NCBI GenBank assembly: GCA_020428645.1
Contig: JAGQMN010000003.1
Coordinates: 1-51,073 of the forward strand
Direction of reading: 5' to 3'
Length of the DNA stretch: 51,073 bases
Origin: Patescibacteria group bacterium
GTDB lineage: Bacteria; Patescibacteriota; Minisyncoccia; Phycocordibacterales; UBA1006
Of the stretch, positions 43,583 through 51,073 are shown piece by piece. Both the position numbers and the translations under genes were made by a program. The notes below the pieces were generated by a model. The model did no database searches, was not told the origin of the DNA, and was given only the letters and a program-made list of their open reading frames with translations. Each line of letters starts with the position of its first letter. The first letter of the stretch is position 1.

Positions 43583-44917
43583 ATGACTTTTATATCAAAA
43601 GTACATTCAATGCATACAGTATGCTATACCATTTGTTGTAGTGTGTTTTTTTGGTTGGTGTCTACAGGAATAGCGTTTGCCTTAGATATTCAAAATCTAG
43701 ATTACCAAGTAAACGACCAGATCATCAATCATGTTTCAGAACATGTTATTAGTTTTGATACGGTATCTCCTATTGCCATTGGAAATAGTGTATCAGTTAA
43801 TTTTCCGAGTGAGTTCAGCTTTACTACAACTCCAGTACAGTCTGATGTTGAAGTTCGCGTAAATGGTAGTCTCTTAACCGTAAGTCAATGGTCATTTAGT
43901 CACTCTTTGAATACCGTATTTATTTCATTTCAAACATCAGCGAGTGCTGGTAGTGATATAGAAATTACCCTTACCGAAAGTGCTGGTCTCAAAAACCCTT
44001 CGGATAATGGTTCATACACGGTAAATTTTGGTGTGAACGGTACCTTTGTAGCAACTGCAGAGGTATGGATATTTCCATCTGACAGCATCACCGTAAACGC
44101 TGCAGTATTGGGTGATCCTGTAGTTGTAGGTGGTGGTTCAAGCGGTGGCACTTGTTATAACTGTTTCTTTAACGACGAACAACCCTTTTTTGATGAAAAC
44201 GGTATTATTCTGTCATTCAAAGGATTTGGTCCATCAAACGGAACGGTTCAGGTCTCAATAGATGAATCACTCGTTGGTACTACGAGTATTGATGATAAGG
44301 GAATTTTCTTAATTTCAATTGATAATATTTCGCCTGGTTTACATACCTTTACTTTTAATGGTTTTGATCGAAATGTAGTCCCGACAGGACCTCGACTCCT
44401 TACTCTCACTGTGGGTGATCGAGGATTCGTGTATGCGAACGATATTTTCCTTTCACCAACCGTAACCGTTGAGCCACGTGGCGATTATGGGCTCGTATTG
44501 TACGGATACACGGTGCCCTACGCTGAACTCGATTTAAATATTGATGGATACTACGTCGGCACCGTTATTGCCAACGGTAATGGTTTGTACTTTTTGGAAA
44601 CACTTCTTGATCAATTTGATATTGGGGAGCACACCGTAACCAGTATCCTCAAAGGTCTTACTAGAAACTTAAGTTCGGAAGAAAAGGTATTCACTATTAC
44701 TCCAGTATTTAACTCGGATGAAAAACAGCTTGAATTCGTTGGCGATCCACTCTTTGACGTATTGTTGAGGACACCTGAGAAATCATCAAACGAACGGTCA
44801 GATATTGTACCGTACCTCTTCTCATTTGGTGGTGGAGCGCTCTTATTATGGTTAATTGTACGATTGGTTGGATACATTAAAGGTCGTGGTCGATACCTTT
44901 CAGACTATGAAAAATAA
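43583..44917 (+). CDS. Secreted multi-Ig-like surface protein with a C-terminal TM anchor
   Basis: Signal-like N-terminus, beta-rich domains, Gly linker with CxxC, C-terminal hydrophobic helix followed by basic residues. Confidence 0.7.
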   Translation: MTFISKVHSMHTVCYTICCSVFFWLVSTGIAFALDIQNLDYQVNDQIINHVSEHVISFDTVSPIAIGNSVSVNFPSEFSFTTTPVQSDVEVRVNGSLLTVSQWSFSHSLNTVFISFQTSASAGSDIEITLTESAGLKNPSDNGSYTVNFGVNGTFVATAEVWIFPSDSITVNAAVLGDPVVVGGGSSGGTCYNCFFNDEQPFFDENGIILSFKGFGPSNGTVQVSIDESLVGTTSIDDKGIFLISIDNISPGLHTFTFNGFDRNVVPTGPRLLTLTVGDRGFVYANDIFLSPTVTVEPRGDYGLVLYGYTVPYAELDLNIDGYYVGTVIANGNGLYFLETLLDQFDIGEHTVTSILKGLTRNLSSEEKVFTITPVFNSDEKQLEFVGDPLFDVLLRTPEKSSNERSDIVPYLFSFGGGALLLWLIVRLVGYIKGRGRYLSDYEK

Positions 44918-44925
44918 TTAGATAC

Positions 44926-45740
44926 ATGTTTACTGTAAATCAAAAAAATATATATAGGTTTGTACTCATCGTATTTGTATCCCTAATGCTTACACCACTA
45001 CACCTGGACGCACAAACAAATGGCACTGTTTCTTCGGCAATTTCTGTTGGTTCCCATGATATTCTTGTTCCTGGTGAATCACTACCAGTCAATGTACAGC
45101 TGTTGAACTTTGGTACCCCTAACGAGCGAGTAGATGTCAGCATGTTATTGAGAGTAATAGATAAAAACGGTTCTGTGATTAGCGAATACAGCGAAACCGT
45201 AGCGGTTCAAACAACTGCTTCATTCGTTCGATATATTCAACTACCAGAATCAATAAACTATGGGGAGTATATTCTGAAATTGCATGTAAGCTATAAAAAC
45301 CAAATGTTCCCAGCAATATCAGAGCAACGATTCAAAGTAGAGCGTTCATTTTTAGGTTATGGAATTTCAAAATGGGTACCAACTCTACCATTTGCGCTCA
45401 TTCCTTTTTTCCTCCTATTTCTTTTCATCAAGCGACGAGAACGAGTTCGATTAATTAATAGAGATTATACACATATATCAGAAGATCAACGAACAAACTA
45501 CGAAATTGTCCATGATATCATTGACGCACTCCACTACCACGTTGGTGATAAAAAAATAAAAGAAATTGCCTCGCTCCAGGACTTGAGGTTGATGATTCAG
45601 GTTCACAGATAAAAAGTCTCACAGGACCTACGGAGGATATTGTATCGACACTTATTCATGAATATGAAGAAGTTATGGGTAAGAAGGTAAACGTTATTCC
45701 CCACCCTCCCTACACAAAAAAACGTATACATGCGAATTAA
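44926..45740 (+). pseudogene. Ig-like membrane protein with a probable single-base frameshift near 45577
   Basis: The ORF ends at 45612 in LQDLRLMIQVHR. Another frame opens at 45579 and reads GLEVDDSG...EYEEVMGKK... to TAA at 45740. Confidence 0.55.
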
Positions 45741-45764
45741 ATCGTAGTGGATACATGTATCAGT

Positions 45765-46151
45765 ATGAAACCGCAGCAGCAAAAGAAAATACTCATTGTC
45801 GAAGGTAATGAACACCTCAACGACACGCTCTTCAAAAAACTTGAGCGTGAGAACTTTAACGTAACTCAATCATTTGATGGTAAAGAGGGTCTTGAGGTAT
45901 CCTACGCTGATCATCCTGATCTCATTCTCCTTGATCTTGAAATCCCAATTATCGATGGTCATGAATTTATGACCCACCTACGAGAAGATACGTGGGGGAA
46001 ACAAGCAAAAGTTATTATTCTCAGCAATCTCAGTATTCGACACAAAGAAGTAGCGAAAACAGTCATTCAAAAAGACCCTATTGCATTCCTTATAAAATCT
46101 TCAACTAAATTGAATGATCTCATAAAGTATGTACACTATGCGTTTGAGTAA
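45765..46151 (+). CDS. Single-domain response regulator (CheY-like receiver)
   Basis: KILIVE, PDLILLDL..P.IDG, KVIILSNL, FLIKS. Confidence 0.9.
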   Translation: MKPQQQKKILIVEGNEHLNDTLFKKLERENFNVTQSFDGKEGLEVSYADHPDLILLDLEIPIIDGHEFMTHLREDTWGKQAKVIILSNLSIRHKEVAKTVIQKDPIAFLIKSSTKLNDLIKYVHYAFE

Positions 46152-46163
46152 ATACATATAGAT

Positions 46164-46190
46164 AAAAACGACCTGTCGCGGTCGTTTTTT
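46164..46190. terminator. Bidirectional terminator between the response regulator and the DUF916-like gene
   Basis: AAAAACGACC-TGTCGC-GGTCGTTTTTT. Confidence 0.75.
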
Positions 46191-46200
46191 GGTAAAAAGG

Positions 46201-47187
46201 TTATTCTTCGTTCTTCATGGACTGTTGTTTTTCTAATTGACGTAGCAGTGACGCTTTGTACATCCGTCCAACAAATCTGAGTATAATCCATGCTAGAACA
46301 ATAATGATGATTCCAAGCAACAGTACCTGCCAAGGGAATATAAAGAATGAGTATGTGGCTACCGATTCCTGGCCTGATTGTCCCCAATGTACATTCAAAC
46401 GAGCGGTGTACCACCCAAAATGAAATTGACGAAATTGAGACCGAGCGGTTGCAAAGAATCCATGTGGTTCTTCTCCTTTTCGTTCCCATGTATTAATAAA
46501 TTTTCGAGCAGTATTTGGAAGAACACTTCCTTCTTTCGGGTTAGCGTTAACTCGATCACGAACCATTCCAAACGTGTTGTGCAACTCAATGTCACCTCTT
46601 GGTACCGCGCGATCCCCTCCAGTGTTGCTGAAACGGTACATAAATTCAATAGGAGGCATTAGATAAAAGTGTTGTTGATCGGTGGCTTCGAAATCAAGAA
46701 TCCCCCCGCTTTCCGGTACATCCCCGTTAACGCGGAGTAATATCAATATTCCTAGTCTTCCACCAATGCTAACAGCTGAGCCATCAGATTGTAGTGGTTG
46801 GTTACCAAAAAAGATCGCAGCAAAGTATCCTCCTGGTTCTGCAGAAGCTGGTATAGAAATAGTGTACGTTACCTCTGTACGCTCCTGAGCATCAAGTGAA
46901 ATACTCGCTGGAGCATTCATCCATGTTGCGAGCCCTTCATCAGCACCAATGAATCGAGGTGTCCCGGTATCATCATTTGATTCAAAATTTTCAAAGCTCG
47001 TGTATACCGTCTGATTCCGTGATTTTTCGTTGTAAAGTTCAATTGTACCAGTCAGGATTGTGCCTGGATCACCCGTAATTTCCAATTTAGCCGGAGACGC
47101 TGTAAGCGCAAAGGCTGATCGAGTGGTCATAACGGAACTCAGAATACCTACCATGACAAGTATAAATGTTATGTAATTTCTTTTCAT
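46201..47187 (-). CDS. DUF916/WxLIP-like cell-surface protein
   Basis: Signal peptide ...AFA/LTASPAKLE, IPASAEPGGYFAAIFF, RLGILILLRVNG, FSNTG...P.G.I, C-terminal TM with basic tail. Confidence 0.7.
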   Translation of the reverse strand: MKRNYITFILVMVGILSSVMTTRSAFALTASPAKLEITGDPGTILTGTIELYNEKSRNQTVYTSFENFESNDDTGTPRFIGADEGLATWMNAPASISLDAQERTEVTYTISIPASAEPGGYFAAIFFGNQPLQSDGSAVSIGGRLGILILLRVNGDVPESGGILDFEATDQQHFYLMPPIEFMYRFSNTGGDRAVPRGDIELHNTFGMVRDRVNANPKEGSVLPNTARKFINTWERKGEEPHGFFATARSQFRQFHFGWYTARLNVHWGQSGQESVATYSFFIFPWQVLLLGIIIIVLAWIILRFVGRMYKASLLRQLEKQQSMKNEE

Positions 47188-47389
47188 AAAATAACAGTGA
47201 ATGTAATGTATTGACCTAAAAATGGTTTTCTACAAAAAATAAAACTTCTATGCACAAGTATGTGTCTATTATACCTCAACTATCCTAAATACAACAATAA
47301 AGTATTTTTTGAAGTGGAGAAATGAAGATTTGTCCTCGCTCCTGGCAATAAAAAACACTACGAAATGTAGTATTTTTTAAATGAAACCA

Positions 47390-48340
47390 CTAGAAGTTTG
47401 CGGTCATGGTGTACGTAAGTGTCGTTGTATAGGTACCTGCTTCAGTTGAGCCGTCAATATTTGCAACGTAATTAACACCATATGTTTCGGTAGAAACAGG
47501 TCCTGTTTGAGTGACCACCGTATCTGCAACTCCTGGATTGAGGTAGTAGTTGGTACCCGCATAGTTTGTAGAAACCGTTCCCGTACCTGATACGACATCA
47601 ACAGAGAGTCCGAATTCTTCCTGTCCTGCAGTTGGTGCTGCGGCCGATGTCATAGCAGTAATGGTATCTGATCCTGAGGTTAGGGTTTCTCCCTCAACAT
47701 TCACAGTATATCCTCCGGTTGCATTCGTTGATGCAAGGAACTGACTTGAACCATTTGCAACTTCTGATCCTGAACCGGTTCCGCCTGTGTTGGCATAGGT
47801 AATTGAACCACTGCTCAATGAACCAAATCCAACCGCATTGTCATCATCATCACTGTCACGAACATCAAAGGTAAGCGCTTGATCAACCGTTGCGGTAACC
47901 AAAATCTGATCGTCGTCCAAAATTGGGACAGTAATTGACCCGGTATCTCCGTTTGAACCAGAAATCGAGATTGAATAGTTTGCCGCCGAAGACGGGTTAA
48001 CCATTCCTGTTACCGTAACCGAATATGCTGTTCCAGCCGATTGACCAGATCCTGAATCGGTATACCGAACAACATTACTCGAAGGCGCCGACCAATCGGT
48101 CGATGATGTAGCCGCTGTCCCGGTGAATGAGCCTGGAAACGTTACATCAATGGTTCCTGAAGCTGCAAGCGCTGTTGGCAACGTAAAACCAATCACGTGT
48201 GTTGCCGCTTCGCTGATCTTTTGTCGATCCATGTTGTCCGACAAATCAGTTGCTGCTGCCGCAAACGCGACTGGAGCGTACATACTAATAAGCGCAAGGG
48301 TCACAAACCCTGACACTACTCTTGTTAGAAAATTTTTCAT
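47390..48340 (-). CDS. Secreted surface protein with a C-terminal WxL-like domain
   Basis: Signal peptide ending APVAFA; Ser/Thr/Gly-rich; ends YVANIDGSTEAGTYTTTLTYTMTANF. Confidence 0.7.
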   Translation of the reverse strand: MKNFLTRVVSGFVTLALISMYAPVAFAAAATDLSDNMDRQKISEAATHVIGFTLPTALAASGTIDVTFPGSFTGTAATSSTDWSAPSSNVVRYTDSGSGQSAGTAYSVTVTGMVNPSSAANYSISISGSNGDTGSITVPILDDDQILVTATVDQALTFDVRDSDDDDNAVGFGSLSSGSITYANTGGTGSGSEVANGSSQFLASTNATGGYTVNVEGETLTSGSDTITAMTSAAAPTAGQEEFGLSVDVVSGTGTVSTNYAGTNYYLNPGVADTVVTQTGPVSTETYGVNYVANIDGSTEAGTYTTTLTYTMTANF

Positions 48341-48450
48341 AATTATTTTAATAATACAGTTAATTAATTGCACTACTTATTAATGGACTGTATCCATGTA
48401 GCTGAAAACATTATACCTTAATCAAATAATAGTAACAACCCCTTTGCAAC

Positions 48451-50967
48451 CTAAAATTGAGCGGTAACAGTATAGGTGATTGTTGAGGCATAGGAACCTG
48501 CGTCAGTTTCGGGAGCTATATTCCCAAGGTAGTATACGCGAAATACTGTTGTTGCATCATCACCAGGTCCTGTAAAGATAGTATCAGTGGTTGTTGGATC
48601 ATACGCATATTGAATACCAGAATTATACGGTGAAACAACAGATCCATTTCCTGATTCAACAAACCCACGCAGACCAAATTGTTCATTGCCTGGTGATGAT
48701 GATGACGCAGTTGAACCGATTGCATCAATAACAACGCTACCACCACAACTTGTACACGTCATATCAGTACCCGCAATACTGATACTGTAACCACTTGATG
48801 CATTGGTTGAAGCACTCATGGTATGGGCATACGATAAACTTGATATACTACCGAGTCCATCACCTGTCGCATAACGCGCCTGGCTGGAGCTCAAGCTACC
48901 AAACCCAATACTGTTGTCAGAAATCGAAAATGATATTGTTTGGGGACTCGCAGCCGATGCCATTGTTATTTCAGGAATTACTGAATAGGTATCGAGTTGA
49001 CTACCAGAAGAGGTTACCAATCGAAAACAGTATGTCGTACTTGCCGTAGCGCCATTATCAATCAACGAAAAGTCCCACTTACCATCTTGATCCTTTGCAA
49101 TCATCGTACCTACCGATGCGTTGTTGAGCTCTTCATAACTTTGGTTAACAATCGTGTGACCACCGTGGGTTGGATCGTTGGCATTTGCTGTCAAACTCGC
49201 TCCGTCAGTCGGAGTACTATTGTCATTGAAAGCAATAATGGTCGCAGCGGTTACGTCACTATAGGTTTCTCCAGTAAACGAGGTGTCACACGTTCCTGAC
49301 TGCTCAGCGAATTGTAGTTTAAAATCTTCTTCACCAGGTCGAAGTGGTGCATCTGCAACATCAATGAGTATCCTCAGTCGGAATGCATCACCAGTTGCGC
49401 TGAGCGTCGTTGAGGTATCTTGTGCCGCCAGTGCTGAACCAACATCAGTTGAATCTGCGTTGGCAAAGAATCGGTACGCCGACTGGGTAAGATTCGGGGG
49501 GAGGAGCGTATCGAGGTTTAGCGAGAAAAAACCAACGGTCGATGGTTGAGTACGATCGGTGGCGGCACCTGCTGCCTCACTTCCAGAGAGGGGATCCATG
49601 TTCACACCCAGATCGTAACCAGCCGTACCAACCGTAAAAATACCAGCGGGGTGGAAACTCCCTCCGAAGGTATCCACTGAACCTTGATTACCACGGATGT
49701 AATTCCCATGCTCGCCCGTTGACTGTTCAACACCGTTCACGGTGATGCTACCATAGGCGGTAAGACGTAAACCAGAACCGACTCTTTTTCGAGCTGTCCA
49801 CACGTTCGCCCAGGCAAAGACATCGGCTGGATTCGTAACATCAACAGCAGTATTGCTTGCTTTGGTAAAACTCGCTGCATCATTAAAACTTACGTCACGC
49901 ATGGCATTTAACGTGGCGCTACTCGAAATATTCTGTAGTCCTGTCGAATCATACGAATGGAAAACCTCAAGGCTATCCGGCATCTCAAGAACAATCATCT
50001 GTCCATTACCATCAGTCACCCAGGACCCATTGTTGTCAGCTCCTCCCTGGTCAGCAGCAACACCTGCTCCACGAAATACCTTTACTTGAATATCTCGATC
50101 AGCCGTTGCTGTTTCCAAAATATCCATCGAACCTATGCCACAATATTCATTCGTAGAACTTCGTTGATAACAATACGATTGGGTCCACCCCTGCCCCGTC
50201 CCGTCATAGTTAAGTTGGCCAATACGTTGAGTACGGCTACCTCCCGTATTTCCCGATACCGACCAGGCAATCAAGTATCGTTTGTTGTCACCCTTTACCG
50301 TTATCGTTTCGGTTCCCGTATCGCCTTGGATCGCGTTGGTGTCTGATTCAGCGGTAACGGCAGTGATGTTAACAGTATTAAGAGTGGTTCCAAGATACGC
50401 AGCGCCGGTACCCCCTATAGCATAGATCCCGTAGTTCGTCGGATTAATACGTACCACTTGAACGTCTGACTCGCCAGCAATACTTCCTGAGGTCGGTGCG
50501 TCGGTGTCGCGTCGACGTTGTACCTGTATCTGGGCGTTGGCTGATGCACCAATCACTACCCCAACGGCACGGAACCATGCTGTGTCTTCCGAAGTATCAC
50601 GTGAGTAACCGGTGTAGTATGAGGTAAACAGACTTCCGCTTCCAGAAGTTAGAGCTATACGTGCCTGTGCATTGTAACGACCGTTTGAACTATCGACTCC
50701 TCGAATGGTGGAAATAATGAGGTAATCTCCCGCCTCGTCAAGTTCAATGGTTGAGTCATCAGGGCGAGTGTAAATACCATCGTTGCGTATTTCTTGATCG
50801 GTCTCAAATGCAGCAAAGCTCGTTCCGGGAATTTGACCACCGACTGAATCCCGCCAATGACCAATATCACCAACAGCAGCATCAGCTAGATATAAAGGGA
50901 AACTAGAAAAAAGCCATCCAATGATAACGTACGTGAAAATTATTATTTTTTCTGATTTCTTGAACAT
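48451..50967 (-). CDS. Large secreted multidomain surface protein with the same C-terminal WxL-like domain
   Basis: Signal peptide; three repeated beta modules; ends YLGNIAPETDAGSYASTITYTVTAQF. Confidence 0.72.
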   Translation of the reverse strand: MFKKSEKIIIFTYVIIGWLFSSFPLYLADAAVGDIGHWRDSVGGQIPGTSFAAFETDQEIRNDGIYTRPDDSTIELDEAGDYLIISTIRGVDSSNGRYNAQARIALTSGSGSLFTSYYTGYSRDTSEDTAWFRAVGVVIGASANAQIQVQRRRDTDAPTSGSIAGESDVQVVRINPTNYGIYAIGGTGAAYLGTTLNTVNITAVTAESDTNAIQGDTGTETITVKGDNKRYLIAWSVSGNTGGSRTQRIGQLNYDGTGQGWTQSYCYQRSSTNEYCGIGSMDILETATADRDIQVKVFRGAGVAADQGGADNNGSWVTDGNGQMIVLEMPDSLEVFHSYDSTGLQNISSSATLNAMRDVSFNDAASFTKASNTAVDVTNPADVFAWANVWTARKRVGSGLRLTAYGSITVNGVEQSTGEHGNYIRGNQGSVDTFGGSFHPAGIFTVGTAGYDLGVNMDPLSGSEAAGAATDRTQPSTVGFFSLNLDTLLPPNLTQSAYRFFANADSTDVGSALAAQDTSTTLSATGDAFRLRILIDVADAPLRPGEEDFKLQFAEQSGTCDTSFTGETYSDVTAATIIAFNDNSTPTDGASLTANANDPTHGGHTIVNQSYEELNNASVGTMIAKDQDGKWDFSLIDNGATASTTYCFRLVTSSGSQLDTYSVIPEITMASAASPQTISFSISDNSIGFGSLSSSQARYATGDGLGSISSLSYAHTMSASTNASSGYSISIAGTDMTCTSCGGSVVIDAIGSTASSSSPGNEQFGLRGFVESGNGSVVSPYNSGIQYAYDPTTTDTIFTGPGDDATTVFRVYYLGNIAPETDAGSYASTITYTVTAQF

Positions 50968-50970
50968 TAT

Positions 50971-51073
50971 TTAGTGAATAATATTAATCTGACAGGTAGT
51001 AATTGAATCCACTTCTCCCGTTTCAGTAAAGATAATTGGGATTGTAAAATTTCCATGTATTGCGTCTTGTACA
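50971..51073 (-). CDS. 3' end of an upstream gene (truncated by the window edge)
   Basis: VQDAIHGNFTIPIIFTETGEVDSITTCQINIIH*, with TAA 4 nt before the ATG at 50967. Confidence 0.55.
   Translation of the reverse strand, partial: VQDAIHGNFTIPIIFTETGEVDSITTCQINIIH

Follow-up and report, generated by a model that had tools for sequence, protein, structure and literature searches.

A probable Pam-type donor-strand pilus locus in a Paceibacteria-type genome of the Candidate Phyla Radiation

Six genes near one end of contig JAGQMN010000003.1 of a Patescibacteria group bacterium (assembly GCA_020428645.1) most probably encode a Pam-type donor-strand pilus, a thin adhesive fibre on the cell surface. 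The contig was analysed as a whole (51,073 bases, complete; hereafter, the window) and belongs to a 720-kb genome that is 87.8% complete; homologues of the window proteins are found in records of Paceibacteria, Parcubacteria, and Campbellbacteria. The gene coordinates correspond to real open reading frames (Table 1): proteins of 838, 316, and 328 amino acids (aa) are encoded on the minus strand, and proteins of 444, 228, and 134 aa on the plus strand, in convergent orientation. All of them except the last one, a response regulator, start with a signal-peptide-like hydrophobic segment, and the 328-, 444-, and 228-aa proteins each possess a second membrane helix. Judging from sequence features, the 838-aa protein would serve as the tip adhesin, the 316-aa protein as the major pilin, the 328-aa protein as the chaperone, and the 444-aa protein as the terminator.

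Pili of this type have been described in Ca. Mycosynbacter amalyticus, a parasite from the Candidate Phyla Radiation (CPR), two filaments of which were solved by electron cryomicroscopy (cryo-EM; Troman et al. 2026 preprint, PMC13278184). In the pilins PamA and PamB, a single linker strand connects an N-terminal beta-sandwich to an open C-terminal immunoglobulin (Ig)-like domain, which is filled by the linker strand of the neighbouring pilin (PMC13278184). The operon encodes the pilins PamA, PamB, and PamE, the PapD-like chaperones PamC and PamD anchored by a transmembrane (TM) helix, the single-domain tip protein PamT, and the TM-anchored terminator PamR, which donates its N-terminal strand (PMC13278184). 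Donor-strand exchange, already raised in a preliminary description of the window, is thus the published mechanism of Pam pilins (PMC13278184).

The 316-aa protein is recognized in hmmscan by the NCBIfam model NF058581, “CPR Pam pilus system pilin subunit, C domain”, with 81.2 bits at a cut-off of 55 bits. Its C-terminal domain recurs in the 838-aa protein and extends to the last residue of both (BLASTP E=6e-24, 38% identity over 196 aa), while its N-terminal domain recurs in the 444-aa protein (BLASTP E=9e-9, 27% identity over 147 aa; 8e-14 with a hidden Markov model (HMM) of the pilin N domain). The preliminary description had noticed both similarities and had proposed a common polymerizing domain on a small and a large subunit; these proposals are borne out, and the common domain proves to be the curated Pam pilin C domain. 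A search of Pfam at E<=1 gave no match in either protein bearing this domain, and the NCBIfam neighbours NF058580 and NF058582, which were also considered, are unrelated families. The AlphaFold2 model of the pilin is of high quality (mean predicted local distance difference test score, pLDDT, of 94) and all-beta, with two blocks joined at residues ~142–155. In total, 199 homologues of the pilin were found in Paceibacteria-type genomes.

The segment joining the two blocks is the predicted donor strand (residues 142–154, DDDQILVTATVDQ), in which I146, V148, A150, and V152 form the motif IxVxAxV; A150 and V152 are nearly invariant among 61 homologues. The distribution of this motif was followed in 80 related loci, centred on chaperone homologues and drawn from 217 matching species genomes, by scoring the pattern [IVLFM]x[IVL]x[AGS]x[IVL] within the ~15 residues ahead of the C domain. 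It is present in all 75 pilins of these loci (75/75), with the consensus DDQVxVTATV; the window pilin has QILVTATV in this place, and pilins from operons containing PamT follow the same pattern (TLTITARV and FNIQAYV). Among proteins that carry the C domain but no pilin N domain, the motif occurs in 1 of 59, and this lone protein resembles a pilin whose N domain has been missed by the profile.

The 838-aa protein belongs to the latter group. It ends in the acceptor domain (57.5 bits with NF058581 in a six-frame search), and the segment ahead of this domain, YSVIPEITMASAASPQT, is devoid of an IxVxAxV motif, reading EITMASAAS at the corresponding place, which does not fit. In a donor-strand polymer, a subunit without a donor strand allows no further subunit distally, so the 838-aa protein could only be the first one and would occupy the tip. 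That it is instead interspersed along the shaft, or that it acts as an adhesin of its own which the chaperone just holds, is unlikely: the tip assignment does rest on motif absence only, and a within-fibre placement is predicted by AlphaFold 3 for one WxL adhesin of Enterococcus faecium, yet the motif is missing from 58 of the 59 domain-only proteins, and the 838-aa gene comes first in the conserved gene order, as does PamT.

The N-terminal 650 residues of this large subunit comprise two parts. The first, a 460-residue module, is common to ~60 proteins; the second, a 160-residue module (“YRFFANADS...FRLRILI...”), is found with 60–70% identity and in 1–3 copies in many large CPR surface proteins, in which MAM, BNR/sialidase-like, LamG, or Calx-beta domains are also present. 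The Pam C domain forms the end of only 25 of 120 homologues. These findings support the view of the preliminary description that shared domains have been shuffled in the locus, and by analogy with WxL tip proteins such a composition fits a modular tip adhesin. Proteins with the 160-residue module possess at least three other kinds of C-terminal ends, for example, ...SITLTIQAVAP and ...NLDFxINLxY, and these may represent further polymerizing or docking domains.

The 328-aa protein, encoded after the pilin on the minus strand, is modelled (pLDDT 90) as two beta domains followed by a long helix. A Foldseek search with this model returned RbmA, WxLIP of E. faecium (9i25_C, E=8.5e-11, and 9i1y), Caf1M, CfaA, CsuC, DraB, and SafB, of which the WxLIP structures have the best TM-scores of all matches (0.40/0.49). 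The protein was also compared with three operons of other Patescibacteria genomes, each having a PamT above the cut-off of the equivalog model NF058579 (240 bits). In these operons, PamT comes first, two or three pilins follow, and then come a ~330-aa protein bearing both a signal peptide and a C-terminal helix and a ~320-aa Big_6/PKD protein with a membrane helix. The family HMM of the 328-aa protein matches the ~330-aa protein in all three (5e-39, 1e-29, and 2e-49), indicating that the chaperones of the window and of the PamT operons are homologous. Among the related loci, L041, L052, L069, L071, and L076 (~1–3 kb downstream of their first chaperone) and L014 (10976-11935) have either a second, divergent pilin–chaperone pair, with matches of 1e-9 to 1e-15 for the C domain and 1e-28 to 1e-37 for the chaperone, or a second chaperone only. 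Such duplication recalls the pairs PamA/PamC and PamB/PamD.

The gene order is conserved. A gene for the C domain stands beside the chaperone gene in 77 of the 80 loci, a co-occurrence that the preliminary description had named beforehand as a test of its proposal, and a complete pilin with both N and C domains is encoded directly upstream of the chaperone in 74 of them. The usual order is a C-domain-only protein (290–2130 aa), a pilin (~350 aa), a chaperone (~330 aa), and a ~345-aa terminator-like protein. Of 301 genomes sampled from the window's class, 56 are matched by the chaperone profile, so the system is patchy, occurring in about one-fifth of the sampled genomes, while the published pilin model NF058581 has matches in 20, nine of them above the cut-off, and therefore undercounts the system in this class.

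The 444-aa protein combines a pilin-type N domain with the donor-strand motif ITVNAAV, and the C-domain HMM finds no acceptor domain in it; its C-terminal part includes a Big_6 match (Pfam, E=9e-4) and ends in a TM helix. This part is homologous to the ~345-aa protein that directly follows the chaperone in 49 of the 80 loci. These post-chaperone proteins open with ITVEITATVPG right behind the signal peptide, and the strict motif was found at the mature N-terminus of 34 of the 49 terminator-like proteins, against a background of 0.2 per 1000 aa. The 444-aa protein has no sequence match to the Big_6/PKD protein with a TM helix from true Pam operons. In most of the related loci, the putative stopper ends not in a membrane helix but in a type I dockerin (Pfam Dockerin_1, 25.6–30.4 bits at a cut-off of 22.9), often with a Cys-rich segment and Big_6; a membrane helix takes its place in the window, L004, L005, and L020. 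The dockerin type is seen at L013:10970-12010, L017:9216-10244, and L024:10946-11845 and in ~40 further loci. Behind the dockerin-type terminators comes a ~290-aa protein that bears a signal peptide as well as a C-terminal TM helix; its identity as a cohesin was considered and not adopted, as there is no Pfam cohesin match.

Alternatively, the pilus unit might comprise the minus-strand genes only, the plus-strand genes being an unrelated surface cassette with a similar Ig-like N domain. The two sets are indeed convergent transcription units, the similarity of the N domains is modest (27% identity), and the 228-aa protein and the regulator are limited to the two closest loci. We nevertheless regard this possibility as rather improbable, because the 444-aa protein has retained, besides the N domain, a donor motif in the equivalent position, its C-terminal part has its homologue directly after the chaperone in 49/80 loci, and the arrangement is conserved in L004 and L005. 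The 444-aa gene had been called divergent in the preliminary description; it is convergent with the pilus genes and divergent only from the neighbouring protease gene.

Still less probable is a display system without polymerization, as in the older csc/WxL model, where the C domain would dock to the envelope and the DUF916-like 328-aa protein would hold single adhesins. In its favour, a small and a large protein do have a common C domain beside a DUF916-like membrane protein, and the window pilus is predicted from genes and monomer models. However, filaments composed of proteins with this curated C domain have been seen by cryo-EM (PMC13278184), and the WxL clusters themselves are now reported as pili. 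Moreover, neither the split of the motif (75/75 vs. 1/59) nor its reappearance at the N-terminus of the product of the post-chaperone gene would be expected of a docking module.

In the Pam-type pilus proposed here, all subunits would be exported by the Sec pathway, each through its signal peptide. The 328-aa chaperone, retained in the membrane by the helix at its C-terminus, would lend a strand to the open C-terminal Ig-like domain of newly exported subunits and thereby maintain its fold. The 838-aa protein, having an acceptor domain and no donor strand, would start the fibre and end up at its tip, with the large variable N-terminal part exposed as an adhesin. Each 316-aa pilin would then fill the groove of the previously added subunit with its linker strand (I146-V148-A150-V152) and offer its own groove to the next one. 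Finally, the 444-aa protein, in which the N domain and ITVNAAV are present and an acceptor is absent, would stop the growth, and its C-terminal helix would fix the fibre to the membrane. A subunit that can only accept (838 aa), one that both donates and accepts (316 aa), and a membrane-bound one that can only donate (444 aa) would constitute the pattern predicted by a head-to-tail polymer.

Several observations weigh against this interpretation. When the whole pilin model is compared with known structures in Foldseek, only generic two-Ig adhesins are found (ClfA, FnBPA, integrin legs) with TM ~0.25, and no WxL chain appears among the top 50 matches; the whole-pilin comparison is of limited informative value, as the relative orientation of both domains dominates the score. 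The 838-aa protein is borderline with NF058581 in hmmscan (52.7 bits at a cut-off of 55). No PamT equivalog has been found: the best window match is 29 bits, on the pilin, against a cut-off of 240, and the whole genome (87.8% complete) contains no PamT beyond this partial match. Nor does the pilus model account for the 228-aa protein and the response regulator, both encoded within the locus. Finally, 106 bases separate the 838-aa gene from the contig end upstream of it, and parts of the locus are possibly missing; as the window is the whole contig, the locus may extend past position 51073.

In comparison with the published Pam system, the window has the same curated pilin C domain, a two-domain pilin with a conserved linker strand, a homologous membrane-anchored chaperone encoded directly after the pilin, and a subunit with a predicted donor strand, Ig-like domains, and a TM helix encoded near the chaperone, all in a CPR host without sortase or usher. 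The differences concern the taxonomic position (Saccharimonadia or Microgenomatia for Pam, Paceibacteria-type for the window), the number of subunits (three pilins and two chaperones vs. one of each), the modular 838-aa domain-only protein in the place of PamT, the complete pilin N domain ahead of the donor strand in the terminator, and the additional 228-aa TM protein and response regulator. The chaperone-usher pili (Pap/Fim, Caf1, Csu, CFA/I) likewise employ donor-strand complementation and exchange on incomplete Ig folds, and the fold of the window chaperone matches Caf1M, CfaA, CsuC, DraB, and SafB with Foldseek E-values of 1e-8 to 1e-9. Unlike these systems, the window has no outer membrane, a membrane-tethered chaperone, and a two-domain pilin; there is no usher-like gene in the locus, and a profile search of solved structures revealed no sequence similarity to chaperone-usher proteins. 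When the sequences of solved structures were searched with the pilin, with its alignment, or with the alignment of the chaperone, nothing useful emerged even at E<=10, which means that PamA/B, WxL, WxLIP, and usher-pathway chaperones are beyond the reach of HMMER from the window sequences.

The preliminary description had called the locus WxL/csc-like, with the 46201 protein as a DUF916/WxLIP-like anchor. Membership in the WxL/csc type does not hold: the WxL family (Pfam PF13731) has no match in the window genome, no locus protein contains a W-x-L tripeptide or LPxTG, the genome (87.8% complete) has no sortase (PF04203), and the shared domain is Pam pilin C. A sortase-type pilus was likewise rejected, given the absence of sortase from the genome (87.8% complete) and of LPxTG from the locus proteins. 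As to the likeness of the 328-aa protein to DUF916, it is upheld by the fold (Foldseek E=8.5e-11) and by intermediate sequences, whereas its own score with Pfam WxLIP_PGBD (DUF916, PF06030) is weak (13.5 bits, E=0.078, below the cut-off of 27.3). PF06030 matches 52 of the 301 class genomes, 13 of them above the cut-off, and 49 of 62 places matched by it are genes that are also matched by the chaperone profile of the window family, including 8 of 12 above the cut-off. One such gene (genome G474) encodes a 325-aa protein, equipped with signal peptide and C-terminal helix, that scores 37 bits with DUF916 and 1e-15 with the window chaperone family. Intermediates matching both profiles link the window chaperone to DUF916 despite its own sub-threshold score. 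The preliminary comparison with WxL clusters is thus appropriate for the chaperone, which belongs to the DUF916/WxLIP fold and superfamily, and for the way the system works. The 328-aa protein is more likely a chaperone than an anchor; the anchor is more likely the 43583 (444-aa) protein, given its pilin N domain and donor strand, its lack of an acceptor domain, and its terminal membrane helix.

Enterococcal WxL clusters have been shown to build a donor-strand pilus, in which the DUF916/DUF3324 protein ElrE serves as a chaperone anchored in the membrane (Sleutel et al., preprint of October 2026, bioRxiv 10.64898/2026.10.17.759780). The Elr system consists of the WxL pilins ElrC/D, the tip ElrA, the LPxTG terminator ElrB, and the chaperone ElrE (WxLIP), and it has been stated to be confined to Bacillota (bioRxiv 10.64898/2026.10.17.759780). 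The WxL preprint is silent on CPR, and the Pam preprint (PMC13278184) on WxL and DUF916. Like the predicted pilus of the window, the WxL pilus has a small pilin and a large adhesin with a common C-terminal incomplete Ig-like domain, a membrane-anchored two-domain chaperone, and a strand-donating terminator; WxLIP is the best structural match of the window chaperone by TM-score, and sister genes of the window chaperone family pass the DUF916 threshold, which the window chaperone itself does not reach. In contrast, the window pilin domain has no detectable similarity to WxL, and the pilin carries an additional N domain; its predicted donor strand is an internal linker, as against the mature N-terminus in WxL pili; and anchoring would rely on a TM helix instead of sortase and LPxTG. 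In one genome of the window's class (G553, contig C3; L093:6670-9179), a secreted protein of 191 aa that scores at Pfam's threshold for WxL (25.0 bits) is encoded directly upstream of a 606-aa protein in which WxLIP_PGBD (55.6 bits), LysM, and LytR_C were identified. This WxL–WxLIP pair in a CPR genome is at variance with the stated confinement of the system to Bacillota.

As to the expression of the pilin gene, the best sigma-70-like site of the region lies just 5′ of it, and a hairpin of 13 bp between A- and U-tracts follows its stop codon (minimum free energy -15.1 kcal/mol, z=-3.75; 0 of 200 shuffled sequences as stable). These elements are weakly consistent with the major subunit being expressed separately and highly.

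The remaining plus-strand genes are less easily accommodated. The 228-aa protein has a weak match to RbmA-like_FnIII (E=0.11 in the window, 0.02 for the L004 homologue), and its homologues occur only in L004 and L005 among the 80 loci; it is possibly a second PamR-like anchor. A correspondence with the membrane protein behind the dockerin-type terminators was rejected: phmmer found nothing, and hhalign gave 27% probability with alignment of the signal peptide only. The cytoplasmic end of the 228-aa protein is 43–60 residues shorter than in its homologues (271 and 288 aa in L004 and L005), and the tail may be truncated in the window. The receiver-only response regulator (Response_reg, 54 bits) is encoded between the anchor genes and the chaperone gene, in the same position as in L004 and L005, the closest loci, and no kinase gene lies near it. 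Beyond the 444-aa gene, a matrixin-type zinc protease is encoded (294 aa; Peptidase_M10, 36 bits) with an N-terminal hydrophobic segment, a coiled-coil-like middle part, and the sequence HEFGHVLGIDH; it is followed by a ClpB-like AAA+ protein (643 aa; AAA_2 and ClpB_D2-small), the first ~100 residues of which resemble membrane helices, an unusual beginning for Clp ATPases.

Table 1. Coordinates of the pilus locus features and of neighbouring genes in the window
Feature	Coordinates	Strand	Description
Large subunit, 838 aa	48451..50967	-	Secreted, putative tip adhesin; signal peptide, N module (res 31–488), 160-aa module (res 489–652), Pam pilin C domain (res ~678–838)
160-residue module of 838-aa protein	49012..49503	-	res 489–652
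C-terminal (acceptor) domain of 838-aa protein	48454..48936	-	Pam pilin C domain; NF058581, BLASTP to pilin
Sigma-70-like site	48410..48438	-	TTGTTA-17-TATAAT, 10/12; consensus match only
Putative major pilin, 316 aa	47390..48340	-	Signal peptide, N-terminal beta-sandwich, linker (donor) strand, C-terminal Pam pilin domain
Pilin linker, predicted donor strand	47879..47917	-	res 142–154; motif I146, V148, A150, V152
Terminator-like hairpin	47349..47379	-	13 bp, between A- and U-tracts; directly 3′ of pilin stop codon
Putative chaperone, 328 aa	46201..47187	-	Membrane-anchored, two Ig domains; signal peptide, two beta domains, C-terminal TM helix (res ~286–312); DUF916/WxLIP- and PapD-like
Response regulator, 134 aa	45747..46151	+	Receiver-only
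228-aa protein	44926..45612	+	Signal peptide, one Ig/FnIII-like domain, TM helix (res 149–169), cytoplasmic tail
Predicted pilus terminator and membrane anchor, 444 aa	43583..44917	+	Signal peptide, pilin-type N domain, donor motif, Gly-rich linker, Ig-like stalk, C-terminal TM helix
Donor-strand motif of 444-aa protein	44087..44107	+	ITVNAAV, res 169–175
C-terminal TM helix of 444-aa protein	44804..44878	+	res 408–432, then basic tail
Matrixin-type zinc protease, 294 aa	42635..43519	-	
ClpB-like AAA+ protein, 643 aa	40661..42592	-	

The presumed lifestyle of CPR bacteria is attachment to host cells, and identification of the contact-making fibres has only recently begun. For the fibre proposed here, the analogy with Ca. 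Mycosynbacter makes a role in host attachment plausible. Most likely, the locus is an ordinary member of the known Pam type whose putative terminator retains the pilin N domain, and it contributes a short inventory of predicted parts (tip, pilin, chaperone, anchor) from a class in which Pam pili have not been highlighted. Its chaperone is a bridge, by both sequence and fold, between two pilus systems published separately in 2026, and the chaperones of Pam and WxL pili likely share an origin. It is conceivable, and proposed here tentatively, that the Pam pili of CPR and the WxL pili of Bacillota are two branches of an old single-membrane pilus superfamily with a DUF916-type membrane-anchored chaperone, bridged by the Paceibacteria loci; through the chaperone link, it becomes possible to test whether the donor-strand pili of single-membrane bacteria have a common origin.

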